Shown here one piece after another: positions 5,829-36,572 of a DNA stretch of 64,000 nt. The notes beneath the pieces are model-generated. The model did no database searches, was not told the DNA's origin, and worked only from the letters and a program-made list of their open reading frames with translations. Source of the stretch: an uncultured bacterium (GTDB lineage: Bacteria > Babelota > Babeliae > Babelales > RVW-14). The translations under genes and the position numbers were made by a program. Location of the stretch: assembly GCA_903825355.1 (NCBI GenBank), contig CAIKAH010000001.1:2540-66539 (forward strand). The letters are read 5' to 3'. The stretch's first letter is position 1. Each line of letters begins with the position of its first letter.

Positions 5829-6659
5829 GTGAGCAGCTTGCATCCTATCGAAAAAAATGTGAAGGCTTCCTCGTTTGAGGAAGCCTTCTTTCATTCTAAC
5901 GAAACATACATTCATCCAACCGCTGTCATCGGAGATCATGTCACGCTTGGCAAAGGCGTTAAGATTGGCCCCTTTTGCACTGTAGTTGGCAACACGAGTA
6001 TCGGTGACAACACGCGCTTGCATGCACATGTTACTATTGGGCTTCCCGGCCAAGTAGTTGGCGTATTGCAAAGCTTGGGAACCATTATCATTGGGAGCAA
6101 TTGCGAAATTCGTGAATTTGTTACCGTACATGGAGCACGGACTGATGAAGGCTCCACGCGCATTGGCAATAATTGCTACATCATGCATAATGCACATGTG
6201 GCGCACGATGTAATCATCGGCAATAATGTTGTAGTCAACCCAGATGTTAATTTTGGGGGACATACCGTAGTTGAAGATCGTGCCGTCATCATGACCGGCA
6301 GTGCCACACACCAGTTTACGCACATTGGTACCCTTACAGCGTTAGCACCGTTCAGCGGCATTCGACAGGACTTACCACCTTTTTGTATTTTTAGTGGCAA
6401 ACCAGGAGCTTTTTTTGGCCTCAATGTAGTGGGCTTGCGACGAAATGGCGTACCGCGTGAAAGTATTAATGCCTTAAAACACGTTACTAATCTTTTTTAT
6501 CTTGAAAAGCTCCCATTGCAAAAAATAACCGATACTAGCATTGCCGAGCCAAGCTGGGGAAGCGACCAGTACGTGCAGCAATTTTTAACCTTTGTACACA
6601 ATAGCACGCGCGGGGTTTCTCGCCGTTGCGGTAAAGAATCTGAAGCGGAACTACTATGA
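5829..6659 (+). CDS. lpxA: Acyl-ACP--UDP-N-acetylglucosamine O-acyltransferase (LpxA)
   Basis: Left-handed beta-helix hexapeptide repeats (IHPTAVIGDHVTLGKGVKIGPFCTVVGNTSIGDNTRLHAHVTIG...) plus a C-terminal helical domain (GLNVVGLRRNGVPRESINALKHV), colinear with E. coli LpxA. The track ORF starts at 5727 but that part is the tRNA-Gln. I place the start at the in-frame GTG at 5829; the exact start is uncertain. Confidence 0.85.
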   Translation: MSSLHPIEKNVKASSFEEAFFHSNETYIHPTAVIGDHVTLGKGVKIGPFCTVVGNTSIGDNTRLHAHVTIGLPGQVVGVLQSLGTIIIGSNCEIREFVTVHGARTDEGSTRIGNNCYIMHNAHVAHDVIIGNNVVVNPDVNFGGHTVVEDRAVIMTGSATHQFTHIGTLTALAPFSGIRQDLPPFCIFSGKPGAFFGLNVVGLRRNGVPRESINALKHVTNLFYLEKLPLQKITDTSIAEPSWGSDQYVQQFLTFVHNSTRGVSRRCGKESEAELL

Positions 6660-7663
6660 TAAAACTAGGCATCATCGGGCTTGGCAAAATGGGCGGCTAC
6701 CACGCTTCCATCTCACAAACGTTGCCCAACGTTAAACTCGTTGCTGTTGCTGACCCGCACCAATCAAATCTAGACAAAGTTACAGACCAAACGGTTATCA
6801 AAACTAACGATTTTACGCTCTGGCTTGATCAAGTTGACGCGGTTATTATTGCTATTCAAACCGCTAAGCATTATGCCGCAGCAAAAACATGCTTAGAGCA
6901 TGGAAAACACATTTTAGTTGAAAAGCCTATCACTAGTACTAGCGAGCAAGCAGCAGAGCTGTTTGCCTTAGCACATAAAAACAATCTTGCTTTGCATGTG
7001 GGACACGTTGAGCGCTTTAATGGCGCCATTCAAGAACTTAAGAAAATTGTTACTCGGCCACTTTTTATTGAGTGCCATCGCATGGGGCCATTTGTTCAGC
7101 GTGCAGCACGCGATAGTGTGGTGCTTGACCTCATGATTCACGATGTTGATTTGGTGCTGAGCCTGGTGAATGAAAAACCGGTCAGCGTTACAGCCCATGG
7201 CAGCAGTGTACACTCCCCACTAGCTGACGTTGCTAGCGTACAGCTTACGTTTCCTAGCGGGTGCATAGCTTCTGTAGTAGCAAGCCGTGCCTCCCAAATT
7301 AAACAGCGCAGTATGACGGTACATGAAAAAGAGGCGTTTTATCATCTAGATTTTACTACGCAAGATTTAGTAATTCACCGACAAACGAGCTCAAGCGTGC
7401 AGGTAGGACTCGATCAATTACGCTATCGCCAAGAGTCACTGATTGAACATGTTTTTGTACACAAAGATAATCCGCTCAAACTTGAGATCATGCATTTTAT
7501 TCGTGCTATTGAAACGCAACAAGACATGCGCAATGCCCTGCAGGACATTCAAGCATTAGATATTATTGTTGAAATTGAGCGGCAGTTGAGCGTGCAAATG
7601 GGTAACGCTTTGAACAGCACTACAACCCCTACGGAGCATCGTTCGACAACTATGACGATATAA
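6656..7663 (+). CDS. Gfo/Idh/MocA-family NAD(P)-dependent oxidoreductase (possible UDP-GlcNAc 3-dehydrogenase GnnA-like)
   Basis: N-terminal Rossmann motif MIKLGIIGLGKMGGYHA, then EKP (ILVEKPIT) and a family-typical C-terminal domain. The ATGA start/stop overlap with lpxA suggests translational coupling. Confidence 0.8.
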   Translation: MIKLGIIGLGKMGGYHASISQTLPNVKLVAVADPHQSNLDKVTDQTVIKTNDFTLWLDQVDAVIIAIQTAKHYAAAKTCLEHGKHILVEKPITSTSEQAAELFALAHKNNLALHVGHVERFNGAIQELKKIVTRPLFIECHRMGPFVQRAARDSVVLDLMIHDVDLVLSLVNEKPVSVTAHGSSVHSPLADVASVQLTFPSGCIASVVASRASQIKQRSMTVHEKEAFYHLDFTTQDLVIHRQTSSSVQVGLDQLRYRQESLIEHVFVHKDNPLKLEIMHFIRAIETQQDMRNALQDIQALDIIVEIERQLSVQMGNALNSTTTPTEHRSTTMTI

Positions 7664-7666
7664 TAA

Positions 7667-7873
7667 ACCGCTCTTTCTTGGCCCATTGGGCCTGCACCCA
7701 TTCGAGATGCTCAGGGTGAGCGGGGGAATAAACAGATGTACACAATTTTTCTCATACAAAAATCCACTAATCCTTTTTTAATAACGGTTAGCTTTTATTT
7801 AGGTAATATACAAAATGCCGCTCCCCCTGAGCAAGGTCGAAGGGCGAAGTCCGCCAGGACGAGAAAGAGCGGT
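7667..7873. repeat. Long imperfect palindromic GC-rich element (two inverted units of about 60 nt around an AT-rich spacer of about 90 nt)
   Basis: The outer 14 nt ACCGCTCTTTCTTG (7667-7680) pair with CGAGAAAGAGCGGT (7860-7873). The inner GCTCAGGGTGAGCGG (7710-7724) pairs with CCGCTCCCCCTGAGC (7818-7832) with 1 mismatch. The middle parts are partly complementary. It fills the spacer between the oxidoreductase gene and lpxI. Related units occur at 16.7, 33.0 and 58.8 kb. Confidence 0.75.
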
Positions 7874-7878
7874 ACCTA

Positions 7879-8682
7879 ATGATTGCTGTCATTGCCGGAA
7901 CCGGCTCTTTACCTACAGAGGCATGCAAAAAATTAGTACAAGAAGGCAAAGCTTTTTTTGTCGTATGCCTGTTCCCTGAAGAAAATCAGCAACAGTTGCA
8001 GGCCGTCATCGGGCATGGGATTGAGCTGGTAGCTGAAAAATGTTTTAAAGCTGGTACTATCCTACGCAAGCTCCAAGAGCGAAAAACAAAACAGGTATTG
8101 TTTATTGGCAAAGTTGATAAAAATAACCTTCTTAAGCAACTTAAACTAGATTGGCTAGCCCTCAAAATAATGGGTTCGCTTGTTACTCGTGGCGACAAAG
8201 ATGTAATGGAAGCGCTGCTCAAAGAGCTTGCCAGTAATGGTATAAGCACCATCCGCCAAGATGAAGTTTTAGATGGGTTGCTCGTCAAACCAGGCATACT
8301 CTGTGGAGAACTTACCAAAACATTAGAAGCGAGCATTCAACTGGGAATCAAAACAGCGCTCACCATATCAAAAGCTGATATTGGACAAACCGTGGTGGTA
8401 AAAGATGCTATGGTGCTTGCCGTAGAAGCAATAGAAGGAACCGACGCCTGCATTCAGCGAGGACTGGCATTAGGCAAAGAAGGGGTAGTCATCTGCAAGG
8501 CTGCGCACCAAGAACAAAATAAATCATATGATTTGCCAACGCTAGGCCCAAAATCACTTGCAAGCTTTAAACCAGGTGATGTAGCAGCTATCGCTTGGGT
8601 TGCCTCTCATACCTTAATTGCTGAAAAAGAGCAGTTTATTGCTCAAGCCAAAGAACTTGAGATTATGCTAATAGCAGTTTAA
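7879..8682 (+). CDS. lpxI: UDP-2,3-diacylglucosamine hydrolase LpxI (DUF1009 family)
   Basis: Has the MIAVIAGTGSLP N-terminus, FIGKVDK, and the C-terminal DIGQTVVVKDAMVLAVEAIEGTDACIQRG and KSYDLPTLGPKSL motifs typical of LpxI. It sits in an lpx gene context. Confidence 0.85.
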   Translation: MIAVIAGTGSLPTEACKKLVQEGKAFFVVCLFPEENQQQLQAVIGHGIELVAEKCFKAGTILRKLQERKTKQVLFIGKVDKNNLLKQLKLDWLALKIMGSLVTRGDKDVMEALLKELASNGISTIRQDEVLDGLLVKPGILCGELTKTLEASIQLGIKTALTISKADIGQTVVVKDAMVLAVEAIEGTDACIQRGLALGKEGVVICKAAHQEQNKSYDLPTLGPKSLASFKPGDVAAIAWVASHTLIAEKEQFIAQAKELEIMLIAV

Positions 8683-10785: not shown

Positions 10786-13080
10786 CTATGCTGCCGCCTG
10801 CCCTTGTGGGCCACTAGGCTTTCTAAAGAACCATTCAGCCATTTTATAGCCGGCCTGACGACCGACAAAACCACTCAGGCTGATAAGTATACCATGTCCC
10901 ACTTTATCGACAAGAAGCGGTACAAACTCAACCAAGTCATCTTTGTGTTTTTTATAGTCCTCAAGACAGCTCATGGTTTGTTTGTAATCAAAAATTCCCA
11001 TCATGAAGAAGTAGTCAAGAAACGCAATCATCATTGCATCATTAATTTTTTGATCATCGTGTAGATCAGGAGAGATCATACCTACTGATCGCATAAAATC
11101 AATCGCTGCACGGCGTTGCTGGCTACCCGCCGTATGCATAACATCTTGGATCATTGCTTGCAGCATGTTCACTACAATTTCTTTGCTATAACCAAGCAAC
11201 ATAACTTCGTCTTCTGAGAACAGCCATGATGCTACTTTCATTCCCACCTTGCTTAATCCAGAAGCTAGAGCCTCAATATTTGCAGCAGCCCCTTTACGAG
11301 CCCAATGGCGACCTATTGAGCCAAAGACATAATAAAGCGCACTGTACTCTAGAAATAAGTTTTGATTTTGCTTAAAGAAAGCCTCATGTGTTACCCCGCC
11401 ATTTGGATACATTTTAGCGTACGCAGTCATCATATCAAAGAAGTACCAGCGATTGTTATAACCGTGTATATCAAAATCGTTAAAGCGCGCGATATAGTCA
11501 TTGATTACCGGATGGCGCTGCATTAAGCACCAAGTAATACAAACATCCATAAATTCAGAAAGAATTCGCGGACTTACTACGCCCATTGTTGCATTTTCAA
11601 TATCATACATACGTTCACGGCTTACATGGTTATAAATAGCTGACTCCATCATGCCGCTGACATATCCTTGCAAGCTAAAAATACCAAAACGAATAATTGC
11701 ACGGTAAACATCAGCCGTTAGCGCCTTATTGCGTGGAGTTCCATCTTCTTCAAAGGTAAAAACATCTTTAAAATTACCTAAATTATACCAAGCAAAAGCA
11801 CATACAAAACGCATACCAAAACGCGCCAACTGAGACATTTGCATGGCATACATAGTTGGCTTATTAAAAAGCTGCGCACCAGCAAATAAGGTCATCCCGT
11901 GTTTTTGCAACTTAGTAAGAACGCCCCCTAGAGCAGCGATTCCCACTCCTTCGTTCAATGGATCGACAAAGTGAGCCAGAGAACTATCACCAATAATAAG
12001 CTGCGTAATGTCACGACCAGCAGAATCAAAATGATGCTGAGCCATCGCAGCAAAAGCTAGCCCTGAACGCAAGCAAACATCTTGCACCCACACGCTACTT
12101 GGGGATCGACCATGAGTAAGGTGTGCAAAACTAAAGCCATTAAGCATGAAATATGGCTCAAACACGTCATACACATGCGACATGGTGTAAAGCACCCAAC
12201 TAATATCAATAGTAGCCTTGGCAGCAGCCTTTTGCACATTGATCATTGTGTGCAAGTGCTTAGTAACTTGTTTGGTCCAATACTCCAGTGCCTTGTGCTG
12301 TACAATATCGCCTTTTGCTATTGTTTCAGTCAAATGCACCAATACATTGCTAGTTTTATGAAGAACTTTTTCCAACTCTTTAATTGCTGGCGCGTTAATA
12401 TTGTAACAAGCACGCGCTGCAGCAGCATAATTTTTAGCATGCATTTTTGTCAAAATGTCGCGCAAAGTTATTGTTTGTTCGCTCTCTGCTTTTTCAAGCA
12501 ATTTTAGCAATCCTTTAAGATCAGCGTGCCCCCAAACAGCTGTAGCCGCAACAGCCTTATCTTGCGCATTATTACTGATATTACTAAAAAATAGTTCTTG
12601 AAAGGAGCCATCACGCAACGCATCTTCTAGCTTATGCAGCGCTTGTTTACACTCATCAGTTTGTTTTGGTTGGTTAGCAATAGTATAAGCCAACATCCCA
12701 ATAGTATTTTGCAAACGCAAATTGTTTGCCACCACAGAAACACCTTGTAGGGCCTCTTCCACTAAGGCACGGGCATCAGCAGGCAATACTTTGAGATGTT
12801 GCTCACGAATTTCTTGTTGCTGACGAATCGCATCAGCTTTAAGCCGCTCAATCAATGCTTGAAAATCATTCTGTAATTCTATAGGGTTTGAACCAATTAA
12901 CGATAGAGCTTGAATATCCCCTTCAGTGCGTATTGGCTGATCATCAAAATCTTTGAATAACGCTAGTTCTTTTGTAACTTCTTTACTCATTTCGATTGGT
13001 TGAGGAGTGCCTACTGCATGAACTTGAGTAAACAAAACAAATGCCGTTACCAGTACGCGTCTAAATTGTGCGATTGTCAT
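10786..13080 (-). CDS. Large signal-peptide protein, unknown function (tandem paralog 1)
   Basis: 764-aa ORF with a signal-like N-terminus (MTIAQFRRVLVTAFVLFTQVHAVG). It is alignable end to end with the 13296..15410 product, for example VDPLNEGVGIAALGGVLTKLQK / VDPLNEGIGIFALGGILGKLQK and YYVFGSIGRHWARKGAAA / YYVFGSVGRYWARKGAAA. Confidence 0.8.
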   Translation of the reverse strand: MTIAQFRRVLVTAFVLFTQVHAVGTPQPIEMSKEVTKELALFKDFDDQPIRTEGDIQALSLIGSNPIELQNDFQALIERLKADAIRQQQEIREQHLKVLPADARALVEEALQGVSVVANNLRLQNTIGMLAYTIANQPKQTDECKQALHKLEDALRDGSFQELFFSNISNNAQDKAVAATAVWGHADLKGLLKLLEKAESEQTITLRDILTKMHAKNYAAAARACYNINAPAIKELEKVLHKTSNVLVHLTETIAKGDIVQHKALEYWTKQVTKHLHTMINVQKAAAKATIDISWVLYTMSHVYDVFEPYFMLNGFSFAHLTHGRSPSSVWVQDVCLRSGLAFAAMAQHHFDSAGRDITQLIIGDSSLAHFVDPLNEGVGIAALGGVLTKLQKHGMTLFAGAQLFNKPTMYAMQMSQLARFGMRFVCAFAWYNLGNFKDVFTFEEDGTPRNKALTADVYRAIIRFGIFSLQGYVSGMMESAIYNHVSRERMYDIENATMGVVSPRILSEFMDVCITWCLMQRHPVINDYIARFNDFDIHGYNNRWYFFDMMTAYAKMYPNGGVTHEAFFKQNQNLFLEYSALYYVFGSIGRHWARKGAAANIEALASGLSKVGMKVASWLFSEDEVMLLGYSKEIVVNMLQAMIQDVMHTAGSQQRRAAIDFMRSVGMISPDLHDDQKINDAMMIAFLDYFFMMGIFDYKQTMSCLEDYKKHKDDLVEFVPLLVDKVGHGILISLSGFVGRQAGYKMAEWFFRKPSGPQGQAAA

Positions 13081-13295
13081 AAAACACCATGTAATAAATA
13101 TGTTAAGAATGTCCTACTGTGTGCCCCCGCCCCCGATTTAACTCCCGAGCTATAACGCTTATAATCACGTTCAGCACGACAAAGAGCCCCGGATTCCGGA
13201 TTCGCTAGTATGGCAAGACCAGCAATGGTGTCAATTAAAATGAAATAGAATTAACTTTAAGACAAAACGATCCCGTTGTTATTTTCAGATTGAAT

Positions 13296-15392
13296 TTATT
13301 GCGACTGAATGGGAGAGATAGGCTCCCTAAAAAAATACTCAGCAGCTTTATAGCCAACATGACGGCCCAGAAATCCACTAAGGCTAATAATAAAAGCATT
13401 TCCTACTGAGCAAAGAAAACGAGGAATAAAAATATCCATGTCTTCTTTGTATTCTTCGTACAAGGTTATGCATGCAGCTGCCTGATGATAATCAAAGACC
13501 CCAAAAAAGAGAAAATAATCGGTAAACAACTTAATAATCATCTCGTTGATTTCTGCATCCTCAGGCAACTGAGCAGGCAAACACCCTTTTGATTGTAAAA
13601 AAGCAATCGCTTGGTAACGCAACGCGCCGCCTGTCGTCATCACATCGTGGAGGACAAAGCCCAACAGACCAGTAATTTGTTCTTTACTCAGTAGTATTTG
13701 ATCGGCATATTTTTTTGGCAACACATAGGATGCCATTGAACTACCTACACTTCGCGCATACGCCCCAATAGTCTCACCATAAGCAGCTGCACCCTTGCGT
13801 GCCCAATAACGCCCCACAGAACCAAAGACATAATAAAGTGTAGAATACTCATAAAATCGCTGCTGGTTATAAGCCAAAAATTGTTCAAATGCTGCTTCAT
13901 CTTTAGGATCTGCATATTTGAACATGTATCGCAAATACCAGGCATGTTTGTACTGATGAATATCAGCATCGCTAAATTTAACAATATTTTTTTCTACCCA
14001 CTCGTGCCGCCGCATAAGGCAACCAGTAACACACATATCAACAAATTCGCTGACCAGCTGAGGAGCAATAATACCCATGGTGGCATTTTCAATCTGATAT
14101 AGCCTTTCAGCACTTACTTTATCACAAATTAACTTCTCCACCGAGCCGCTCACATGTGCTTCTAACTCTAACAAACCATAGCGTAAAATAGAACGATAGA
14201 GCAATGCCGTTACTGCGTAATTTTCAACTTTTTTTGTTTTAAGTAATGGTACTAAGTTATACCACGCAAAAGCACACCCAAAGCGCAAAGCAAACCGCTC
14301 AACAGGAGATAGTGGCGGACCAAACATGGTTGGCACAGCGAAAGCATGCCCTATGGTACCCACGGCGTTCATCGTCTTTTGTAACTTACCCAATATGCCG
14401 CCCAAGGCAAAAATACCTATCCCTTCATTGAGAGGGTCAACTTGCTGCACCAACGATCCATCGCCCATAATAAGCAAGGTAATATCGTTCTTTGCAGTCT
14501 CAATATCCTGTTGCTTCATAGCCATATAAGCAATACTTGTACGCATAAATACGTCTTGCCAAAGAGGCGCATGCAACATATTTTCAAATGAAAACTCTCC
14601 ATACAGGTGAAAATAAGGTTGTAAGATATCGTAGAAATAAGAAAGCGCTAACAGCAATCGCTGTAAATCAAGATTAGCCATAGTGCCTGCTTTTTTCATT
14701 TTACGCACTGTTTGCAGATGTTTATTGATCTGCTTGGTCCAAAAAATAAAAGCATCACGATTAAGTAATTCTTTTTTGTTTCGTGCAGTCAAAGCAGCAG
14801 CAAGACAGTTGCTCGTTGTTTTAAGTTTTTGCTCAAGTGCAGCGAGCGAAGATGCATGAACTGCATAAACGGCACGTGCTGCAGTAGCATAATCGCTTGC
14901 CTGTAGCTTTTCTAAAATAGCTGCTAAGATTGCTGCTGAGTTGCCAGCTGCTTTCTGCAACAGTGGTAAGAGCTCATCCAACTCCTTTTTTCCCCACGCG
15001 GGAACTTCTTGAACAGGAGCACACATATTTCCAAAAAAGAAATGACCAACGGAACCATCACGGGTTGCACGCTCAAGTAAAGTAAGGGCATCGTGCAGCG
15101 TCTGGGAACTGCTATTCGTGAGTTGTTTTTTAATATCGCTAATCAGCATGTCTAGCGTAGCAGGAAGCCTGAACAGATCACTACATTCCGTAAATGCAGT
15201 AAGAGACTCTTCAACGAGCGCACGAAGTGATGTGGGCAAAGCGTTAAAATGTTTTTCACGAAGCATTTTTTGGCGCGCAACAATAGGAGCAAAAATATCA
15301 TCAGTGCTTGGCAATGTTATTGCAGCACAGGAAAGACTAGTATGAACAATAATCGCACATAACCACATGCGCACTAAGGAAATAATTTGCAT
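13296..15392 (-). CDS. Large signal-peptide protein, unknown function (tandem paralog 2)
   Basis: The track ORF is 13296..15410. The likely start is the internal ATG at 15392 (MQIISLVRMWLCAIIVHTSLSCAA). It shares conserved blocks with the 10786..13080 product along its whole length, including the C-terminal ISLSGF(V/L)GR..GYK.AE.FFR.P. Confidence 0.8.
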   Translation of the reverse strand: MQIISLVRMWLCAIIVHTSLSCAAITLPSTDDIFAPIVARQKMLREKHFNALPTSLRALVEESLTAFTECSDLFRLPATLDMLISDIKKQLTNSSSQTLHDALTLLERATRDGSVGHFFFGNMCAPVQEVPAWGKKELDELLPLLQKAAGNSAAILAAILEKLQASDYATAARAVYAVHASSLAALEQKLKTTSNCLAAALTARNKKELLNRDAFIFWTKQINKHLQTVRKMKKAGTMANLDLQRLLLALSYFYDILQPYFHLYGEFSFENMLHAPLWQDVFMRTSIAYMAMKQQDIETAKNDITLLIMGDGSLVQQVDPLNEGIGIFALGGILGKLQKTMNAVGTIGHAFAVPTMFGPPLSPVERFALRFGCAFAWYNLVPLLKTKKVENYAVTALLYRSILRYGLLELEAHVSGSVEKLICDKVSAERLYQIENATMGIIAPQLVSEFVDMCVTGCLMRRHEWVEKNIVKFSDADIHQYKHAWYLRYMFKYADPKDEAAFEQFLAYNQQRFYEYSTLYYVFGSVGRYWARKGAAAYGETIGAYARSVGSSMASYVLPKKYADQILLSKEQITGLLGFVLHDVMTTGGALRYQAIAFLQSKGCLPAQLPEDAEINEMIIKLFTDYFLFFGVFDYHQAAACITLYEEYKEDMDIFIPRFLCSVGNAFIISLSGFLGRHVGYKAAEYFFREPISPIQSQ

Positions 15393-15557
15393 AAAACCCC
15401 AACCACCCACATAAACTCATTAGATACCCGTTAGCCGCTCCTCTTTTGGAATAAAATGTAGAGAGGCAAAATATAGTATGGCAGGGGTTATTGGAACGTC
15501 AAACGGGTGGGGAAACTACCACTTTTGAGCAACGACTAATCATACACCGGCCGCAGC

Positions 15558-16682
15558 CTAGTTTCTATCTGCATTAATTCGCTCATAGCGTGCACAATTA
15601 GCGATAAAACCAATCATGCACCAGCTCGCAATAAGTGCTGTCCCACCATAACTAATAAAAGGCAGTCCCAACCCTTTAGTCGGTAGCAAACCACAAGATA
15701 CCATAAGATTGATCAGCGCTTGAATCGTTAGCAATATAATAAAACCAAGCGAGCTAAAAAAGCCAAATCGCTCACGAAATAAAAGCACAATACGCATACC
15801 AAAAAATAAAAATGCTGCGTAGAGTAGAATAAGCCCTAACGACCCAATAAACCCTATTTCCTCGGCAATAATAGGAAAGATAAAATCTGTATGTTGCATA
15901 GGAAGATAGAAAAATTTCTGTTTAGAATTGGCAATCCCAACGCCCCACATTTTGCCGTTGCCAATAGCAATAAGTGACTGGATAATTTGAAATCCTTTTC
16001 CTTGGGGATCGGCCCACGGGTTCAAGAAAATTAAAATACGGCTCAAGCGGTATGACTTGGAAAAAATGAGATAGACAATCGCAGGGCAAGCAAGGAGCGC
16101 TGTAGTAAGTAAATAGCGCATATTACATTCTGCAACAAAGAAAAGGACTAACGCAGTGGAAAAAAGCGTAATGACCGAACCAAAATCAGGTTGTTTAAGC
16201 AAGAGCGCAAAAGATACGCCCAACACAAATAAAAACGGCAAATAGGTATAGAAGAATGATTTAATGCGATATTGCTTTTTTTCTAAAAAATATCCCATGT
16301 ACAATATAAGAAATATTTTAAGCAGCTCGCTGGGCTGCAAACTAATAAAACCTAGATGTAGCCAGCGATTTGCCCCATGCATTTTTATTCCTAGCCCAGG
16401 AACAAATGTTAACCCCATCAAAGCAAGCGAGCCAATAAACAGCATGGGCGCATAGTGTTTGAGTTTTTCGTACGGGACGAGTGCAAATACCAAAAAGCCT
16501 ATAACTGCCAGCAATGTATAAGCAGCTTGTTTCTTTAAAAAAAAGAAATCACTTCCACATTTTTCTAATGCAAGAATGGAGCTTGAGGAATACACAAAGA
16601 CAAGGCCAACTAACGTAAGCAACGTTACTATGCCCATAAGTGTTTGTACATCTGCACGTAAACGACTTGTCGGTAATGCCAT
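15558..16682 (-). CDS. ftsW: SEDS-family peptidoglycan glycosyltransferase FtsW
   Basis: Polytopic membrane protein of 374 aa with family motifs (QPSELLK, LPMQHTDFIF, GLGLPFISYGGTALI). It lies directly downstream of murD, as in dcw clusters. Confidence 0.85.
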   Translation of the reverse strand: MALPTSRLRADVQTLMGIVTLLTLVGLVFVYSSSSILALEKCGSDFFFLKKQAAYTLLAVIGFLVFALVPYEKLKHYAPMLFIGSLALMGLTFVPGLGIKMHGANRWLHLGFISLQPSELLKIFLILYMGYFLEKKQYRIKSFFYTYLPFLFVLGVSFALLLKQPDFGSVITLFSTALVLFFVAECNMRYLLTTALLACPAIVYLIFSKSYRLSRILIFLNPWADPQGKGFQIIQSLIAIGNGKMWGVGIANSKQKFFYLPMQHTDFIFPIIAEEIGFIGSLGLILLYAAFLFFGMRIVLLFRERFGFFSSLGFIILLTIQALINLMVSCGLLPTKGLGLPFISYGGTALIASWCMIGFIANCARYERINADRN

Positions 16683-16705
16683 GAGAGCCTCGCTTGTATT
16701 GTCAC

Positions 16706-16860
16706 TCGAATCTTTCTGATCCCAACTGACTTCGCCAATACAAAACGAACGTTCTATATCTAGACAAACTCAGGGGGAGAGGATGATTATAACCCACATT
16801 GTTCCCGTCATCCTGGACTTGTCGATAGCCCCTGACCAACGGGGCCAAGAAGATGCGGGC
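16706..16860. repeat. Second copy of the GC-rich intergenic element (two diverged inverted units), between murD and ftsW
   Basis: ATCTTTCTGATCCCAACTGACTTCGCC...CTCAGGGGGAGAGG matches the reverse complement of 7817-7873 (CTCTTTCTCGTCCTGGCGGACTTCGCC...CTCAGGGGGAGCGG). CCCGTCATCCTGGAC...GGGGCCAAGAAGATGCGGG matches the reverse complement of 7667-7726 (CCCGCTCACCCTGAGC...GGGCCAAGAAAGAGCGG). Confidence 0.65.
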
Positions 16861-16895
16861 TAAACCAATTCTCACTGTAAAAAAAAGAGTGCCCC

Positions 16896-18356
16896 TTAGG
16901 CAAGCTTTTGCACGAGCTGCTCAAACACCTTGCCCCGATGCTCATAATTTTTAAAAAAATCAAAGCTTGTCCCGCTTGGAGAAAAAATGACTATATCCCC
17001 ATCCTTCATGATCAATCCTATAACCTGTATCACTTCTTCTAAAGTATTACATGCTGTTGCACCAGGAAACTGATGACTTTCTGGCCCAAACGCAAAAATA
17101 TGTTTTACAGGGTGCATTTTTGCCAACTCCGGCATTAACCATGAGCGATCAATACCTTTACTAAGCCCCCCCAAGATAATGATCAACGGACGTTTTTTAG
17201 TAGTAAGCCGTGCTACTGCTGCAAGGGTAGCTTCTGCTATAGTTGATTTTGAGTCATCATAAAAATCAACTCCTCGAATAGTAGCACAATGACGCACTCG
17301 ATGGCCCAGGTCTGAAAGCAGCTTCTCTGGTGAGATTTTTTTCAAGACAGCAGGCAACTGTTCTACAGCAAGTCCCATCACATACAGCCCTGCAACAACC
17401 TGCATCCAGTTACTAATAAAGGTAAGATCAGGCAATATAATATTTTCCACTAAAAGTATGGTAGCCGTACAGTTAAAATATTCATACGTTGCAAGCATAA
17501 TGCTGGTACCATCAATATAAAGGAGTTGAAAATGACTGATAGGAACCAACTTCAATGCAGTATCATCAAGTTTAGATACAGCCGTTACTAAGATCTTGCT
17601 ACGTACAGACTTAAATGTACTTGCCATAATAAATTGAGCCTGGCCTACCAATAGCTCATATGAAATAATAGCTGTATCTTGTGGCCCTTGGGCATACAGC
17701 ATCGTTAATTTTGCTGCACAATAGCCAGCAAATGTCTTATGACGATCTAAATGATTGGGATAAAAATTGGTATATATTGCGATGTTAGGAGAAAAAGAGG
17801 TATTCAATTCTAGTTGAAAGCTAGACAATTCTATAACGGCAGCATCTAGTTCTTTTTGTTGACTAACTAAATCAAGCATACCAATACCAACGTTACCGCC
17901 AATCGCAACCTGCAATCGTCTACCATTGCCCTTTTTTGGTACTATATTTGCTAGGCTACCCAACAAACGTGTAATAGTTGTTTTACCAACTGAACCGGTG
18001 ATAGCAATTGTTGGCTTATTAAAAAGTACACTAAAAAAATCAAGCTCACAGAGTATTTTACTTCTATATTGTTGATAGGGGCTCAGATCAACGCCTGGGC
18101 TGGCAAGAAGAATATCATGCTGCTCGAAAAAATTTTTCAAATCGGTACTATGACCATCAATAAACACAGCATCTGCGTGTTTTAAGAGTGTTACTTCATG
18201 CTCATCTAAAACACGGTTGTCCCAGACAGAAATTTTTTTGCTTTCACTCAAAACACACTCAACACGATTAGAAGTACCTTCGACTCGCGTACTACTTAAA
18301 AGGGCTAAGGCAGACTTGCCTACTACCCCAAAACCAATAATCCCTAGCTTGTACAC
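16896..18356 (-). CDS. murD: UDP-N-acetylmuramoylalanine--D-glutamate ligase (MurD)
   Basis: Mur ligase layout: N-terminal Rossmann (LGIIGFGVVGKS), ATP-binding ITGSVGKTTI, and DDSKSTIAEATLAAV in the C-terminal domain. It starts with GTG. Confidence 0.85.
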   Translation of the reverse strand: MYKLGIIGFGVVGKSALALLSSTRVEGTSNRVECVLSESKKISVWDNRVLDEHEVTLLKHADAVFIDGHSTDLKNFFEQHDILLASPGVDLSPYQQYRSKILCELDFFSVLFNKPTIAITGSVGKTTITRLLGSLANIVPKKGNGRRLQVAIGGNVGIGMLDLVSQQKELDAAVIELSSFQLELNTSFSPNIAIYTNFYPNHLDRHKTFAGYCAAKLTMLYAQGPQDTAIISYELLVGQAQFIMASTFKSVRSKILVTAVSKLDDTALKLVPISHFQLLYIDGTSIMLATYEYFNCTATILLVENIILPDLTFISNWMQVVAGLYVMGLAVEQLPAVLKKISPEKLLSDLGHRVRHCATIRGVDFYDDSKSTIAEATLAAVARLTTKKRPLIIILGGLSKGIDRSWLMPELAKMHPVKHIFAFGPESHQFPGATACNTLEEVIQVIGLIMKDGDIVIFSPSGTSFDFFKNYEHRGKVFEQLVQKLA

Positions 18357-20602: not shown

Positions 20603-21232
20603 ATGAACACTTTTTCATACCTAATGCTAGTAGTCGCGCTGGCAGTTTCAAACTGTCTTGCAAACGAAACAATAACCGATACTGTATCGCCTTATGACAA
20701 AAGCAAAGCAATTTTCAATGCAAATGTCACTACTATTACAGGGATTATAAATTCGCTTAAAGATTCACTGGCAAATGCAAAAAAGCAGTATGACAAAATC
20801 GTTTACGATAAAAATACCGCAACAAATAATGTAAAAAAATATATGCAAGCAATCGCAATTTTAGAGCAGCAGCTTGCTGAAACGCAGACCAATCTTAAAA
20901 ACGCTACTACAACTGTTATGATGTGTGAATCAAAAATAGGAAATATCAATGCTACGCTGGGTCAAGCGGTAGATGGACAGTCGACCAGTATCGCCACAAG
21001 CATGACGGCTATTTTAACAGCAAGTGATCAGATGAACACCCTGGCAGCCAATTCAACAACTGCTGACAAGCACAAATTAGAGGCTGGAAATGCTAAGAAA
21101 CAAGCACAAAGCTTGCAAAACTCCTTAGAAAATCTAAAAAAAGATATTAGCTCAGCTAGAATGCAATATGCTGCCGCAGGAACACAAGCATCAGCACCGG
21201 TACTAACACAGCAAACAGCCCAACAAAATTAG
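20603..21232 (+). CDS. Secreted N/T/A/Q-rich helical protein, unknown function
   Basis: 209-aa ORF with a signal-like N-terminus (MNTFSYLMLVVALAVSNCLA) and low-complexity helical sequence. Its stop overlaps the convergent ligase stop by 4 nt. Confidence 0.7.
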   Translation: MNTFSYLMLVVALAVSNCLANETITDTVSPYDKSKAIFNANVTTITGIINSLKDSLANAKKQYDKIVYDKNTATNNVKKYMQAIAILEQQLAETQTNLKNATTTVMMCESKIGNINATLGQAVDGQSTSIATSMTAILTASDQMNTLAANSTTADKHKLEAGNAKKQAQSLQNSLENLKKDISSARMQYAAAGTQASAPVLTQQTAQQN

Positions 21233-23001
21233 TTTTTTTTGTTTTTAGTTTTTTTTTCAAACTGCAGATGATACAAGTTCTGTACCTCAGCAGACGTGGT
21301 GGCTGCTGTTGCCGATTTGTCTGGACGATAACCCATGAACCGTGGAAAGCGTAACGCGTAACCAAGTTTTTCAGTAGTTGCATGCGCTGTATGCGAAGGA
21401 GAAAGCGTAATTTCATCTGCTCGGATCATACAAACAATCTGTGGATCAACCCAAACATCAGGAAACAACTCTTTGTTACAGACCACATTGTGTGGCAAGC
21501 GTGACATTTTTAGCCCATCACAGGCTTTTTTTACTTCCCGCCATTCAGCATCAGTAAAACCAGTACCAATTTTTGCTACTGTTTCAAACATATCTTTTTT
21601 AGGATTGTAAACACCAACAAGCAAAGCGCCTATGCCAAATTGTGCTCGCTTGCCCTGACCTGCGTAATAACCTAAAATAACACAATCTAGCGTATCATCT
21701 AACGAGCCAGTCTCTTCGCGTTTCAGCTTAATCCAGTTAAAGTTACGCTTGCCTGGTTGATATAAAGCATCAGGGCGTTTAACAACTAAGCCTTCTAGTC
21801 CGAGAGTTACCGTCTCTTCAAAATAGTTAAAAAGCTCTTCTCCGTCCTGCATAACACGCTCATCAATTACTTTAATAATTTCATGTTGCTGCACAGCCTT
21901 AGTAGCACATATCTTTAACATAATGTCTCGACGCTCTTCATGCGTTTTGCTGAGCAAGGATGTTCCATTTAGAAAAAGTATATCAAACAGGTACAACTTA
22001 AGCGGAAATACTTCAGCTACTTGATCAATATTATGTTTACGCTTACGTTTTACAGTCTCTTGGAATGGCAAAAAATCACCAGTTTGTGGATTAATGCAAA
22101 TTGCTTCACCCTCAACAATTAATTGCTCCACATCAAGCTCATATAGCGATGCAACAAGATCAGGAAACATAGCTGACATGTCTAGTAAATTGCGTGAAAA
22201 AAACCGTACAACCTTATGTTTTGCACTGTTATCAAGATGCACTTGCAATCGAAAACCATCAAGCTTAGGTTGCGCAACACAAGTACCCAATTTTTTTATA
22301 ATCGCTGCGGCATCAGCAAGACGTTCTGCAGCTGAAGGACGAATGGGAATGCCAGGCTTAATTGCCATAGCATGAATACCAGCAATACCAGCCGATTTAA
22401 GTGTTGCAATAATCAAGCCAATATCAGCACAAATATTATATGCTTGCTCTAAATCGCCACGCAATGATTTGTTACCAACCGACATCCAGGAAAATGCATC
22501 CAGCAAGGTCATATCAGAAAAACCAAGTCGCAAATTACCTTCTATAATCCGTAGAACATATTTTGCTGAAATCGGATCCAGCGCTCCTAACAATTTTAAT
22601 ACTGCTTGCTCACGATTTTCTTGTGAACCAATACCGCTCATTTCAAGTAATTTTTGCAGACTTCGCTCAATATCGATTACAGAAAGAACAGAGGTCTCTA
22701 CACCCCACGTATACTGCGCCACCACAGAACCCAAGTCCCCAACTTTTTTCAATTCATGCTTAGCAGCGTCAACTGAAGTACCAAGCAATTGAGCAACAAC
22801 ATGTATCAAGCTTTTTTCAGCTAAATTAAATTGTGCGCCCAGATAAGGGGGCTTGAGCGAGCCGAGCGAAACATAAGCAATAACGCTAGCCTCAACAGCC
22901 GTTGCCTGCCCAAACAATTCAGCAAGCACAACTGTAATAGCAGTACGTGCACTCTCTTCTTCTATCTGGTCAAATATACGAGCAACATGAGAAAATTTCA
23001 T
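21229..23001 (-). CDS. ATP-dependent DNA ligase (Lig1/archaeal-type with N-terminal DNA-binding domain)
   Basis: Motif I is KLDGFR (QPKLDGFRLQVH), with EGEAI (III), EGLVVK (IV) and WIKLK (V). There is a roughly 240-aa N-terminal DBD-like region and an OB-fold C-terminus. The start overlaps the plsY stop (ATGA). Confidence 0.85.
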   Translation of the reverse strand: MKFSHVARIFDQIEEESARTAITVVLAELFGQATAVEASVIAYVSLGSLKPPYLGAQFNLAEKSLIHVVAQLLGTSVDAAKHELKKVGDLGSVVAQYTWGVETSVLSVIDIERSLQKLLEMSGIGSQENREQAVLKLLGALDPISAKYVLRIIEGNLRLGFSDMTLLDAFSWMSVGNKSLRGDLEQAYNICADIGLIIATLKSAGIAGIHAMAIKPGIPIRPSAAERLADAAAIIKKLGTCVAQPKLDGFRLQVHLDNSAKHKVVRFFSRNLLDMSAMFPDLVASLYELDVEQLIVEGEAICINPQTGDFLPFQETVKRKRKHNIDQVAEVFPLKLYLFDILFLNGTSLLSKTHEERRDIMLKICATKAVQQHEIIKVIDERVMQDGEELFNYFEETVTLGLEGLVVKRPDALYQPGKRNFNWIKLKREETGSLDDTLDCVILGYYAGQGKRAQFGIGALLVGVYNPKKDMFETVAKIGTGFTDAEWREVKKACDGLKMSRLPHNVVCNKELFPDVWVDPQIVCMIRADEITLSPSHTAHATTEKLGYALRFPRFMGYRPDKSATAATTSAEVQNLYHLQFEKKTKNKKN

Positions 23002-23760: not shown

Positions 23761-25404
23761 CTAAATTTTGAACTGTTTAATGCTCGTACAATCAAAACAG
23801 AATTTGTACAATGATTTAAGAAACAGCACACCTGACAAAAGTGTTGCAACAATACCAGCCATTAGTGTTACCGCAAATCCTTTGATCGCTGGACCACCAT
23901 ACCAGAACAGCACAATACCGGTCAGGAACGTTGTAATATTTGAGTCTAAGATCACAGGCATCGCATCAGAGAATCCATCAAGCATCGCTTTTTTAAAAGG
24001 GACACCAATTTTCAGCTCGTCTTTGACGCGTTCATAAATCAATATTGAAGCGTCAATTGCCATACCGATGGTCAGTACAATACCCGCAATACCAGGTAAT
24101 GTCAAGGTCGCTTTGAAGTAAGACAAAAATAATAACGTCAAAAAGATGTTTACTAACAATGTAATAATTGCAAAGAGCCCTGGGATTTTATAGTAAATCA
24201 AGCTAAAAAAGAATAAAAGCGCAAGAGCAACCATACAAGCCAAAACACCTTTGTAAATCGAATCTTGCCCCAGCGATGCACCAACACGGTTTTCTTGCTC
24301 CATTTTCAATGGCGCCTGCAGTGACCCTGATTTGAGAATAATAGAAAGGTCCAGTGCTTCTTGTACGCTTGCAATGTGATTGATAACACCAGAACCACCC
24401 GTAATAGCTGTCTGAATTTGTGGATAGGTGTACATAACATCGTCGATGATAATACCCAAATTACGCTTGATATTATTTGAAGTCAGCTCGCCAAATTCAC
24501 GACCGCCCTCACTATCAAGTTTAAAGCTTACCATTGGCTTATTGTACTCATCATGGTCTACCTTAGCAGCAATTAAATGGTCGCCGGTTAAATCAGGATA
24601 AGCTGAAACCAAGAAAAATTGACCATGGCCTTCTTCGTCCGTACCTTTTCTACCAGGCACAATCATCTTATCTGAAGGCAATTCCCCGTCATATTTATCT
24701 AATAAGGCTTCGCGAGAACCAGCCATATCTTCAATAATTTTAAACTCAAGCAACGCTGTTTTAGTAATTACCGATTTAACGTGCTCAGGATCGTCAATAC
24801 CTGGCAGCTGAATGACAATCTGATGGTCACCATGCTGCTGTACGATAATACCTTCAACGCCATACCCACCTAAACGATTGGTAAGTACGTTTACGCCTTG
24901 CTCTACAACACCAAGGCGCGTGGCTTGCTCCACTTCTGGTGCAAACGTTGCACGTAATACACCATCACTAAGCTTTAAGCGTAATGAATTTGTTTTGGAT
25001 TCAGTAAGCGCAGCATAGGCAGCTTTACCCTCAGCCTCAGAAGCAAAGGTCATATTTAGACCAGTATCAACTACTTCTTTTTTAACAGGCAAAGCAAGAT
25101 TTTTTGCTCTAAGGATATTTTCAATCCCACGGCCTTCGCCTAGTAATTTGATTTCGAGCGCTTTTTCAATTTCTACGGTGTATACCAGATACGTACCGCC
25201 TTCAAGATCAATACCTTTTTTAATATGGCTAAATTTCAATGCATTGTAATAGTGGCGAGCTGTTCCCATCAAACCTGGCTGACGCGCTTGCTTAAGGGCT
25301 TTTTGATCTAGCGAAAGCATAAAATAGCAACCAGCAACGATAACGCCTACCCACAACATAAGTGGTGAAACCAGTGCTCTGCTTAATTTAGATTGTGTTT
25401 GCAT
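23761..25404 (-). CDS. secD: Protein translocase subunit SecD
   Basis: N-terminal TM segment, large periplasmic domain (GIDLEGGTYLVY...), and a C-terminal six-TM bundle with GIAGIVLTIGMAIDASILIYERVKDE. I prefer the ATG at 25404, preceded by GAAGGAGAG; the track ORF runs to 25473. No adjacent secF. Confidence 0.85.
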   Translation of the reverse strand: MQTQSKLSRALVSPLMLWVGVIVAGCYFMLSLDQKALKQARQPGLMGTARHYYNALKFSHIKKGIDLEGGTYLVYTVEIEKALEIKLLGEGRGIENILRAKNLALPVKKEVVDTGLNMTFASEAEGKAAYAALTESKTNSLRLKLSDGVLRATFAPEVEQATRLGVVEQGVNVLTNRLGGYGVEGIIVQQHGDHQIVIQLPGIDDPEHVKSVITKTALLEFKIIEDMAGSREALLDKYDGELPSDKMIVPGRKGTDEEGHGQFFLVSAYPDLTGDHLIAAKVDHDEYNKPMVSFKLDSEGGREFGELTSNNIKRNLGIIIDDVMYTYPQIQTAITGGSGVINHIASVQEALDLSIILKSGSLQAPLKMEQENRVGASLGQDSIYKGVLACMVALALLFFFSLIYYKIPGLFAIITLLVNIFLTLLFLSYFKATLTLPGIAGIVLTIGMAIDASILIYERVKDELKIGVPFKKAMLDGFSDAMPVILDSNITTFLTGIVLFWYGGPAIKGFAVTLMAGIVATLLSGVLFLKSLYKFCFDCTSIKQFKI

Positions 25405-25861: not shown

Positions 25862-27568
25862 ATGAATATATATACTATTTTTACCCTACTGATGTTGTTA
25901 TGTATTCCAACCAACACTACCTTTGCAAGCTCTAAAAAAAAACGCCCCCTAGAAGAGGATACTCAAAACATTATCGATCTAAACAGCGACGATGAACCAA
26001 GAGAAATAACAAAGCCAGGTACTCCACCACCCATCGTACTTACGGCAGCGGGGCAGACAGTAGAAAGTTTTTTAAATAATCTTTTTTTTACTCGCAAAGA
26101 ATTTCGCTGTACCTCCACAGAAGTTGAAACATTTCAACAACAATGGGCTTTGCTAACGTCACGAGACCAAACTCATCTCAGAACATGTAATGATGGCAAG
26201 TTCAACGACACCATTGAAGAATTCTTAAAGTACAAAAAACGGCGTAAAAAAACACAGAATCAGGAACAGGGTCTATTAAACCTGTTAGAAAAAATTAATC
26301 CTACTAAGATCACGCTTGCTGATGTTACAGCATTTACCACAATATGGAACACATGGACGAAAAAAAACCAGCAATCATTTTTGGAAACGCATGAGAAAGA
26401 AATGGTGCTCATAGCACAACTAACATCAATGATTCCCGAAGACGAGGGCTTTTCTGATGACGACGCCGCTCCTCTTGTTGGAACCTATCTTCCTGCTATT
26501 CCTGCTGAAGGAAGTCTAGAGCCGCGCCCTCTAACCCGGGGTATTGAGAACCCTCACGTCATGTGTTTTATGAATGCAACACTACAGGAAATACTCGCCA
26601 GCCCAAGACAAGTTGCTTATCTCAGTATGTTGAAGCGTGAAGCTGTATTGACGCACGCAGCAGGTGATGGCAGAAGGACACCCCTTCTACAGGCTTTTTT
26701 TGATTATAGGGACAATTATTTTTTAACGGCTAGCCATGCGGTAGTTTCAGCAAGCGATCCTGTATATACAGCTTTTGCTCATGCCGTCCATACACTCCTT
26801 GATCCTAAACAGTTAAAACAACACGATCCGCATGAATTCTACACGCAGCTCTTTTCCGCTTTGCATGACCATGACACAGATACACCACGGGCCAATCAGC
26901 TACTACCAACACGCATAGAAACAACCAATACTTGTGCACGGAATAACCACACAAGAACTAAAAACAAGCCCTCATACGTTGTCATGCTAGACGGGTTAAA
27001 TAGTTATCCTGACCAAGATAAACCAATAACTATTACTAGGCTTCTCAATGACTATCAAGCACTTATAGCCAGAACTGACCAAATTGAATGTTCCATGTGC
27101 GGTTGCGAAAATGATGCCTGCCCAAAAAAATTTGCAGAGGAATGCCCATGTAAAGGTGATTTAGCAAAAGTATATAAGAAAAGTCATGACACCATGAAAT
27201 ATACCATACACCCTGAAAATCATTTAGTAATCTATGTTCAACGTTCTAATGCAGACGGAAGCAAATGCAAAAAGCCCATAATTGCTGAAAAATCTATTAC
27301 TGTTGATGGCAAACGTTTTCAGCTTATGTCGGTACTTTTTCATGGGGGCGAAAAAGCTGGTAGCGGCCACTGGACTACTCTAAGACAAGAAATATTATTT
27401 AACCCTAGAAACGGGGACTATCGCAATACCAATCATTGGATCTATTGCAATGACGCTCGCCTATATAATACGCCAGTCGACTTTCCCGTTACTATAACAT
27501 CAAAAAAAATGAGCCCTCGCCCAGGCAAACCTGATGCAACTATGTTCTTTTATGACCGCGTTGCTTAA
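25862..27568 (+). CDS. Secreted ubiquitin-specific-protease-like cysteine peptidase (C19/USP family, eukaryote-like)
   Basis: Cys box GIENPHVMCFMNATLQ (Cys235 at nt 26564-26566). His box GGEKAGSGHWTTL plus WIYCNDARLY. Cys-rich insert CSMCGCENDACPKKFAEECPC. Signal-like N-terminus MNIYTIFTLLMLLCIPTNTTFA. Confidence 0.75.
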   Translation: MNIYTIFTLLMLLCIPTNTTFASSKKKRPLEEDTQNIIDLNSDDEPREITKPGTPPPIVLTAAGQTVESFLNNLFFTRKEFRCTSTEVETFQQQWALLTSRDQTHLRTCNDGKFNDTIEEFLKYKKRRKKTQNQEQGLLNLLEKINPTKITLADVTAFTTIWNTWTKKNQQSFLETHEKEMVLIAQLTSMIPEDEGFSDDDAAPLVGTYLPAIPAEGSLEPRPLTRGIENPHVMCFMNATLQEILASPRQVAYLSMLKREAVLTHAAGDGRRTPLLQAFFDYRDNYFLTASHAVVSASDPVYTAFAHAVHTLLDPKQLKQHDPHEFYTQLFSALHDHDTDTPRANQLLPTRIETTNTCARNNHTRTKNKPSYVVMLDGLNSYPDQDKPITITRLLNDYQALIARTDQIECSMCGCENDACPKKFAEECPCKGDLAKVYKKSHDTMKYTIHPENHLVIYVQRSNADGSKCKKPIIAEKSITVDGKRFQLMSVLFHGGEKAGSGHWTTLRQEILFNPRNGDYRNTNHWIYCNDARLYNTPVDFPVTITSKKMSPRPGKPDATMFFYDRVA

Positions 27569-27600
27569 GTCTACATAAAGCGATTCATCTACTCCAAACT

Positions 27601-27638
27601 AAAAAGGGCCGTCATACGAAAGTATGACGGCCCTTTTT
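27601..27638. terminator. Bidirectional rho-independent terminator between the USP-like gene and htpX
   Basis: AAAAA-GGGCCGTCATAC-GAAA-GTATGACGGCCC-TTTTT: a perfect 12-bp GC-rich stem flanked by A and T runs. Confidence 0.85.
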
Positions 27639-27653
27639 AGTTTTTTCTAACTT

Positions 27654-33011: not shown

Positions 33012-33032
33012 ATAAAGGAGCCTTTAATTACT

Positions 33033-33103
33033 TTCCCGCTTACCCTAGTCTTATCGAAAAGTCCCCGTTGTATCAGGTATAGCCTTGGCAAAGGAGAAGC
33101 GGT
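33033..33103. repeat. Third locus of the GC-rich intergenic repeat unit
   Basis: TTCCCGCTTACCCTAGTCTTATCGAA...GGCAAAGGAGAAGCGGT aligns ungapped with the reverse complement of 7667-7726 (TCCCCCGCTCACCCTGAGCATCTCGAA...GGCCAAGAAAGAGCGGT). By my count, 22 of the first 31 and 13 of the last 17 positions are identical. A weaker inverted partner may lie at about 33140-33235. Confidence 0.55.
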
Positions 33104-33251
33104 TTTAATTCAAATTTAAATTCACCCATCCATAAAGAGGGCCGCTCATTCTACCAAGATATAAAGAACTTGAAAAGCACAACCCTCTCTCGATCGTTAT
33201 TCTTGAGCTATAAGCAAGGCTGAGCCCCCTAAATCACCATAATCAATGAGA

Positions 33252-35470: not shown

Positions 35471-35514
35471 CCGCTACCCCATTTTGTAAACTAAAATAAG
35501 GTAGCGGTTTTTTT
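35471..35514 (+). terminator. Rho-independent terminator after the acidic-protein gene
   Basis: CCGCTACC (35471-35478) pairs with GGTAGCGG (35500-35507), followed by TTTTTTT. Confidence 0.6.
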
Positions 35515-35520
35515 ATAAAA

Positions 35521-35549
35521 TTTGCTTTTATCACTACAAGCGATAAACT
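35521..35549 (+). promoter_or_regulatory. Candidate promoter of the 306-aa paralog (inside a duplicated 53-nt upstream block)
   Basis: TTTGCT, 17 nt, TAAACT. The block 35505-35557 recurs at 36557-36609. Confidence 0.4.
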
Positions 35550-35593
35550 TGCGATCCTTTTTAACAAAAATATAACGCACAAGAGAAGATTAC

Positions 35594-36514: not shown

Positions 36515-36572
36515 AAATGCAAATTCAGCCTAATGTAAGATTTTTTTGTTTTTGAACGGTTTTTTTATAAAA

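Follow-up and report, generated by a model that had tools for sequence, protein, structure and literature searches.

REPs, known from Enterobacteria and Pseudomonas and mobilised by RAYTs, Y1/HUH transposases whose single-copy gene is flanked by the repeats, are imperfect or simple palindromes of 20-40 nt whose families are usually lineage-specific, and in the BIMEs of E. coli two types of REP unit, Y and Z, are combined in opposite orientation. They form inverted dimers downstream of ORFs, lie at times within ORFs, and are assigned by the criterion of a conserved GTAG or CGTC tetranucleotide at one end (PMC3733652). Rickettsia palindromic elements (RPEs), palindromes of about 150 bp from an obligate intracellular bacterium, are inserted in frame into genes (PMC10969869) and are retained as loop or linker peptides of unrelated housekeeping proteins. 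MITEs such as Correia, ERIC, Nezha and QMITE are dispersed and non-coding, have terminal inverted repeats between target-site duplications, and share their ends with a parent insertion sequence. Here we analyse a 64,000-nt stretch of metagenomic DNA (the window) in which a GC-rich intergenic sequence at 16706-16860 had been flagged as a member of a dispersed repeat family. We consider it likely that this sequence is one locus of a REP/REPIN/RPE-like family of small, non-autonomous, structure-dependent mobile repeats; the family appears to be new, and we infer its mobility from its distribution.

Dependentiae have reduced genomes and an obligately intracellular lifestyle, and nearly all knowledge of them is metagenomic. 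In the literature searched we found no description of dispersed repeats in Dependentiae and no paper describing the repeat reported here.

Genomic setting

The best matches to FtsW place the host of the window in Candidatus Dependentiae (TM6, Babeliales), at 97%, 93% and 91% identity, and the GC content of the window is about 41%. The flagged locus is bounded by ftsW (15558-16682, -) on one side and a murD-like Mur ligase gene (16896-18356, -) on the other. A Pfam scan of window ORFs gave no transposase domains, the window contains no IS, and all-against-all comparison of the window intergenic regions gave no other repeat family, with 58679-59106 also blank. Classical bidirectional intrinsic terminators are present at 27596-27645, 63631-63688 and 47786-47851; the first, CTAAAAAGGGCCGTCATAC-gaaa-GTATGACGGCCCTTTTTAG, separates convergent genes and has a similar counterpart in the related locus L044, and the second has perfect arms of 27 nt.

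Several further features of the window are recorded here for their own sake. Tandem paralogs at 10786-13080 and 13296-15410 (-; 764 and 704 residues) have no Pfam match and share stretches of about 72% nucleotide identity; their counterpart in the relative L002 is one 761-residue copy together with an AAA_14/DUF4143 gene missing from the window. In another tandem pair of unassigned function (35594-36514 and 36546-37457), 60 nt at the gene start or immediately ahead of it are 80% identical (35505-35564 versus 36557-36616), and a 57-nt motif is common to three adjacent ORFs at 47195-49386 (motif span 47358-49207). The window has eukaryote-like genes for a UCH (ubiquitin C-terminal hydrolase) domain protein and an ATP-dependent DNA ligase (25862-27568, +; 21229-23001, -), and a relative encodes a zf-RING_2 protein beside its argS block (L272:6686-6701). 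ORF 2805-5207 (+) encodes 800 residues with no Pfam match, has an AT skew of 0.34-0.40 (A over T) and is apparently low-complexity and rich in alanine and glutamine. The 1517-residue product of gene 54125-58678 (-) has a single Pfam match, to PPDK_N (ATP-binding), at residues 195-415.

Sequence and structure of the repeat unit

The pattern CCCCGCTCACCCTGAGC...TCGAA...GGCCAAGAAAGAGCGGT is present in the window, and the consensus put forward in the original prediction was located at 7667-7727 (-), 7814-7875, 16803-16862 and 33033-33103. With up to 3 mismatches, each 15-16-nt half of that consensus matches 3-4 times in the window compared with 0.4-0.8 times in shuffles, and because 0 of 100 shuffles reached the observed counts we take the consensus to be real. 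A generic repeat search (seed 10, minimum 25 nt) missed the family because its copies are gapped and diverged. Using about 22 loci of two related TM6 MAGs, from a scan of one genome per species with the pattern CCTGAGC-N3-4-TCGAA-N15-45-RAGAAAGAGCG, we refined the consensus to CCGCTC-A-NCCT-GAGCYTGTCGA-A(T)GGN'-CG-[variable hairpin]-(A/G)AGAAA-GAGCGG. The unit so defined is GC-rich, about 56 nt long, and predicted to form three helices as single-stranded DNA or RNA: an outer stem (CCGCTC/GAGCGG), a first hairpin (NCCT-GAGCYTGTCGA-AGGN') with a nearly invariant loop, and a variable second hairpin that precedes a conserved purine tract, (A/G)AGAAA.

A covariance model built from 23 units (R1) found 46 copies at E <= 0.01 in 222 kb consisting of the window and loci of two or three related Dependentiae genomes, and the repeat is therefore a dispersed family that extends beyond the window, as had been proposed. 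These copies begin with YCGCTC and finish with GAGCGR, and none of the 46 carries a GTAG or CGTC tag at either end, a difference from REPs to which the greater length and three-helix design of the unit add a further one. In Rfam 15, tRNAs alone reach the gathering score in the window and 18 loci, and nothing matches 7600-7950 at E <= 10. Together with the missing tag, this agrees with the original view that the consensus belongs to no named bacterial repeat.

MAFFT with RNAalifold on raw units recovered the outer stem only, because the hairpins were misaligned, and we then specified the structure manually and used the covariance model to refine it. Of the cells in the resulting alignment of 46 copies, 92.5% are paired, and double changes occur at 11 of the 16 pairs, values reached by 0 of 500 shuffles in a control that overstates their significance because the alignment was fitted to the structure and many copies are kin by descent. 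Displacing the 3′ partner by 1-3 columns lowers pairing to 24-51% of cells. Covarying pairs occur in the outer stem (CG 34/UA 8), the first hairpin (CG 22/UA 12/GC 7) and the second hairpin (GC 15/CG 12/UA 12), and the same compensatory changes can also be read in the raw sequences. The copies contain 12 G-U pairs versus 28 C-A/A-C mismatches and thus give no sign that constraint acts on unit-strand RNA rather than on DNA.

Some copies carry an extra insertion of about 35 nt within the first hairpin loop. In several units this nested sequence is CCTGCCATTCGTAGCCACCTGGGCGTAGTATGGA, itself hairpin-like (L042:2090-2185, L044:4351-4444 and 6191-6284, L079:1833-1974). The TCGACA within the unit resembles a -35 box by a 9/12 consensus match only. 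Hammerhead ribozyme, tRNA-like, attC and k-turn identities for the first hairpin were rejected by inspection, as the conserved cores differ.

Doublet organisation

Units are mostly paired, with 36 of 48 in head-to-head or tail-to-tail arrangement across spacers of 9-89 nt. Fifteen of 16 doublets are heterotypic and join a T-type unit (CGAAG-GTCC...GGAC-GAG) with a G-type (CGCCGG...CCAAG) or a short S-type unit. The ends of the units are the exact limits of similarity between doublets, no direct repeats that would mark a target-site duplication flank six aligned doublets, and within doublets the units are better conserved than the spacers. One genome holds three near-identical doublets at separate loci (L037, L075 and L022). 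Many copies lie 1-26 nt from stop codons, some end 6-7 nt before a start codon, both orientations relative to flanking genes occur, and tail-to-tail doublets are found between some convergent genes.

In these respects the family resembles REPs, BIMEs and REPINs, which are likewise short, GC-rich, multi-copy hairpins mainly just downstream of ORFs or between co-directional genes, and it shares with REPs and REPINs common inverted doublets, no target-site duplication and occasional in-gene copies. Its two unit types in opposite orientation recall the Y and Z REPs of E. coli BIMEs, by analogy only, the sequences being unrelated. MITEs offer a looser parallel: the doublets, at 130-210 bp with inverted arms of about 55 nt and an AT-rich centre, are similarly non-coding and dispersed, but have no target-site duplication, no conserved internal sequence and no known parent IS, and solo units are frequent.

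Copies in the window

We scored the window with a second covariance model (R2) and an nhmmer profile, both built solely from related-genome copies and containing zero window sequences. Two intact units face each other at about 7.7 kb. Unit A (7668-7723, -) is G-type with the second hairpin GGCCC-aat-GGGCC, begins 4 nt past the stop codon of a GFO/IDH/MocA oxidoreductase gene (6656-7663), and has a predicted fold of -25.2 kcal/mol (z = -2.6); its match at 7664-7727 (-) scores 71.5 bits (E = 7e-19) with R2 and E = 1.4e-14 with nhmmer. An AT-rich spacer (7724-7817) lies between the two heads of the doublet. Unit B (7818-7872, +) is T-type, CGAAG-GTCC-gcca-GGAC-GAG, and ends 6 nt ahead of the lpxI start codon (7879); its match at 7814-7876 (+) scores 61.2 bits (E = 8e-16) with R2 and E = 3.4e-11 with nhmmer. 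The minimum-energy folds of A and B are the same three helices, and the two together are predicted to form a single extended structure (-81.7 kcal/mol, z = -6.2). On sequence grounds the inverted pair at 7668-7872 is certain to consist of genuine family copies, as the original prediction had held for both arms.

The flagged units lie in the murD-ftsW spacer. Unit C (16804-16858, +), downstream of the Mur ligase gene, is a decayed G-type copy with the outer stem CCCGtCATC/GATGCGGG, and its match at 16801-16862 (+) scores 11.6 bits with R2 (E = 0.42; nhmmer E = 0.5). Unit D (16709-16786, -), 26 nt upstream of the ftsW start, is also decayed, with about 21 extra nucleotides in the first hairpin loop, and its match at 16702-16786 (-) scores 10.9 bits with R2 (E = 0.67; nhmmer E = 0.0074). 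When their own spacer alone is searched, the R2 E values are 0.0015 for C and 0.0023 for D. The two stand head-to-head with about 20 nt between them, as in doublets elsewhere. Three independent metagenome contigs with the Mur ligase gene, L001 among them, end 5, 57 and 356 nt past it, and breaks at or just beyond C/D fit a multi-copy sequence, a typical assembly break point.

Unit E (33036-33102, +; match 33032-33106) is a decayed solo unit that scores 19 bits with R1 (E = 0.002) and 15.2 bits with R2 (E = 0.036) and has no nhmmer match. It lies antisense in the 5′ leader of argS (31311-33011, -), downstream of a promoter-like TTTTCA-17-TAGAAT (33176-33148). Unit F (58791-58916, +), between the PPDK_N-domain gene and murB, scores 12.6 bits with R2 (E = 0.21 in the whole window and 0.0016 in its own spacer alone) in an alignment that accommodates 69 inserted nucleotides in the loop of the first hairpin and whose outer stem, CCCCTC/GAGGGG, is compensated, and is matched by neither R1 nor nhmmer; from its sequence it may be a decayed family copy.

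Three of the four window loci are thus individually marginal under the window-free model, and coding-region matches at 29249 (14.4 bits) and 10347 (13.1 bits) score like the weak copies with R2. We nevertheless regard C, D and E as probable decayed copies because they are intergenic, C and D are head-to-head, the outer stems are compensated, and comparison with relatives supports them. Intergenic DNA makes up about 9% of the window yet holds four of the six best sub-threshold matches. A weak match in secD (24557-24618), considered as an in-gene copy, was rejected as chance because the window and L002 proteins align without gaps.

These scores revise the original picture of three clear loci in 64 kb, since one locus alone, the 7.7-kb pair, is intact. 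The flagged units stand as a diverged inverted pair, although they are decayed and not clear copies, and the same holds for the argS unit at 33033-33103, which is an insertion relative to two relatives. The unit called probable at 58794-58836 becomes a possible one within the larger R2 alignment, and the weaker copies suggested at 13123-13192 and 15434-15520 drop out, with no match to any model at E <= 10.

Turnover between related genomes

Insertion polymorphism, which the original prediction had proposed as a check, is evident at several loci. The murD-ftsW spacer carrying C and D is 90.1% identical between the window and L003 (FtsW 97% identity), where the ortholog of C is 90% identical and D is conserved; the flanking genes reach 86-95% identity at third codon positions, and the spacer is therefore decaying at about the neutral rate. 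In L002 (FtsW 91% identity) the same spacer is 86 nt long and retains a 33-nt stem remnant only, CCGCTCTTTC-attgag-GAAGAGCGG. At the GFO-lpxI locus both the window and L002 hold a doublet, with the arm types swapped, and the A/B spacer has no similarity to the L002 spacer in either orientation. The argS spacer measures 240 nt in the window; L272 and L273, which share the promoter-like sequence with the window but have no unit E, have spacers of 96 and 95 nt. These comparisons show that copies have been gained, lost and replaced across related genomes, and that most copies of the window lineage are eroding at a roughly neutral pace.

Copies within genes

The original prediction described every copy as intergenic. 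That is so in the window, which has no in-gene copies and lacks orthologs of the repeat-bearing genes of relatives, but in those relatives about a quarter of the sampled copies lie within ORFs. In-frame copies occur in MnmG, a PepA-like aminopeptidase, a glycosyltransferase, UppP, a TolC-like protein and at a NagZ-NamZ junction. MnmG of a relative has 34 residues in place of 8 in E. coli MnmG, and an entire doublet, of about 70 residues, is inserted in UppP of three Dependentiae and missing from five others. In PepA, the glycosyltransferase and NagZ-NamZ the units fall between Pfam domains, and by sequence comparison the in-gene insertions are predicted to occupy interdomain linkers or surface loops. 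All five forward in-gene copies use one reading frame, encoding AHPELVE, and the peptides inserted in UppP are conserved among orthologs.

Copies also affect the limits of gene models. At L079:1833-2057 a doublet fuses Glyco_hydro_3 (NagZ-like) and NamZ domains into one 923-residue ORF (211-2982, -), and one of the units there has lost the TGA that would otherwise close the fusion frame. The GFO gene call in L002 runs 10 residues beyond that of the window, into a unit (L002:17839-17925).

This behaviour resembles that of RPEs, palindromes that likewise sit in frame in unrelated housekeeping genes of an obligate intracellular bacterium and are retained as loop or linker peptide. The likeness (MnmG, UppP, PepA, glycosyltransferase, NagZ-NamZ) holds in the relatives, not for the window copies, and is one of behaviour; the phylum is another one and the unit is shorter than an RPE. 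The intra-ORF share also sets the family apart from REPs.

The core hairpin in other bacteria

The outer stem and first hairpin, CCGCTCAYCCT-GAGCYTGTCGA-AGGRTGAGCGG, are also present in Alpha-, Beta- and Gammaproteobacteria, in metagenome contigs and in (pro)viral contigs, and by its sequence the core hairpin is not specific to the host organism. In Sphingomonadales, with more than 50 loci in the one-genome-per-species scan, the first ~28 nt of the Dependentiae unit have a near-exact match, inverted pairs occur as well, and the element reads CCGTTCG-CCCTGAGCTTGTCGAAGGG-C-CGTTCTTTCTT...AAGAAAGAGCGG-[inverted module]; the shared tail AAGAAAGAGCGG was required by the search pattern. A metagenome scan with CGCTCHNCCTGAGCYTGTCGAA returned at least 120 contigs; among the matches listed, GC ranges over 34-74% and most are the simple 33-nt hairpin. 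The motif occurs in 58 IMG/VR contigs and in unannotated copies on plasmids of Comamonas, Novosphingobium, Methylobacter, Rhizobium, Microvirga and Methylobacterium. The matches seen in Chloroflexota, Acidobacteriota, Cloacimonadota and Eremiobacterota consist of the first-hairpin module CCTGAGC-N3-4-TCGAAGG alone, with no outer stem.

With the Dependentiae model, scores of metagenome copies do not exceed 44 bits, against 53-84 bits for intact Dependentiae copies from outside the window, and what the two have in common is therefore confined to the outer stem and first hairpin. The form in Sphingomonadales and other bacteria is a plain hairpin of 33 nt or consists of two inverted modules with a hairpin at the centre. 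In the Dependentiae unit, the 3′ strand of the outer stem comes only after an inserted second hairpin and purine tract. The generic 33-nt hairpin of other phyla, unlike the Dependentiae unit, would fit the length of a REP, but its cross-phylum occurrence departs from the usual lineage-specificity of REP families. We offer only tentatively, as a possibility we think less probable than its alternative, that the outer stem and first hairpin form a module of an undescribed cross-phylum superfamily whose invariant loop is recognised by a widespread enzyme or host factor, with the Dependentiae unit as a lineage-specific elaboration that has colonised protein-coding genes.

Half of the generic hairpin also occurs in tandem arrays in high-GC metagenome contigs (L158:3065-3167, four copies with a 27-nt period, and L107:1831-1970). 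Translations of such hairpins may turn up as spurious peptides across many annotations. A 5-kb stretch between two inverted hairpins in the metagenome contig L100 was considered as a transposase-like cassette and set aside, its ORF layout alone resembling ordinary genes.

Discussion

The family differs from the named families in the features that define them, having no tag, a longer unit, no target-site duplication and no known transposase, and its closest parallels are those of organisation and behaviour. Some E. coli REPs have been shown to act on transcripts of neighbouring genes, and the units could on that model be primarily host-selected mRNA elements for stability, processing or translation, repeated at many operons for their function and not mobile. 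All three helices covary, units outlast the doublet spacers in conservation, many copies adjoin stops at 1-26 nt and some precede starts by 6-7 nt, the A/B fold (-81.7 kcal/mol, z = -6.2) lies exactly between the GFO stop and the lpxI start, and this locus is occupied in two genomes. Covariation and the conservation of units over spacers could equally reflect such a host-selected function. We nonetheless think it unlikely as the primary explanation, given that the units stand in both orientations relative to genes and are intra-ORF in about a quarter of cases in relatives, the C/D pair evolves at the rate of synonymous sites, presence, unit type and spacer vary among orthologous loci, and C-A/A-C mismatches (28) are more numerous than G-U pairs (12). 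A role as factor-independent transcription terminators, to which GC-rich hairpins often just 3′ of genes and tail-to-tail doublets between some convergent genes would be suited, is very improbable: no T-run follows the stems, a terminator scan gives a partial stem at unit B only, the small hairpin with a T-run at the Mur ligase stop (16902-16890) lies outside the units, the genome has classical bidirectional terminators elsewhere, and units also occupy 5′ leaders and ORFs.

The similarity might alternatively lie in a repeated peptide module (AHPELVEG..., or PFDKLRVSG... on the other strand) and not in a DNA element, as the single preferred forward frame of the five forward in-gene cases and the conserved UppP peptides would suggest. 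We find this scarcely credible, because all window copies and most others are intergenic and in both orientations, base pairing is the constraint, and the host proteins are unrelated and take the insertions in linkers. For the window itself, the 7.7-kb pair could be the sole real element and C, D, E and F chance GC-rich hairpins, since they score 10.9-15.2 bits (E = 0.04-0.7), no better than the two coding-region matches. Against this stand their intergenic positions, in the small fraction of sequence that holds most of the best sub-threshold matches, the head-to-head arrangement of C and D with an nhmmer E of 0.0074 for D from an independent profile, compensated changes in the outer stems, the coincidence of E with an insertion relative to two genomes, and the stem-only remnant retained in the L002 murD-ftsW spacer, and we judge a chance origin distinctly unlikely.

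We therefore favour a REP/REPIN/RPE-like family of mobile repeats. Its copies would have spread through an enzyme that acts in trans and identifies the fold of the unit by its invariant loop and its tail, much as HUH/Y1 transposases (RAYTs, IS200/IS605 TnpA) act on the hairpins of REPs and IS ends, the analogy on which this proposal is modelled. The missing target-site duplication fits HUH-type mobilisation, as negative evidence only. Single copies may have secondary effects on mRNA stability or translation, for example through the A/B structure between the GFO stop and the lpxI start.

With a REP/RPE-like family in Dependentiae, there would be two independent cases in which selfish palindromes have colonised the housekeeping genes of an intracellular bacterium. 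Such a family would account for the fragmented assemblies of these genomes, offer repeats usable as strain-typing markers, and flag gene models that are lengthened or fused by read-through of repeats, such as the NagZ-NamZ fusion, the ~70 residues of UppP and, in L002, the extended C terminus of GFO. That the core hairpin is nearly identical to repeats of Sphingomonadales and many other bacteria is atypical of REP-type elements and points to a shared mechanism of recognition.
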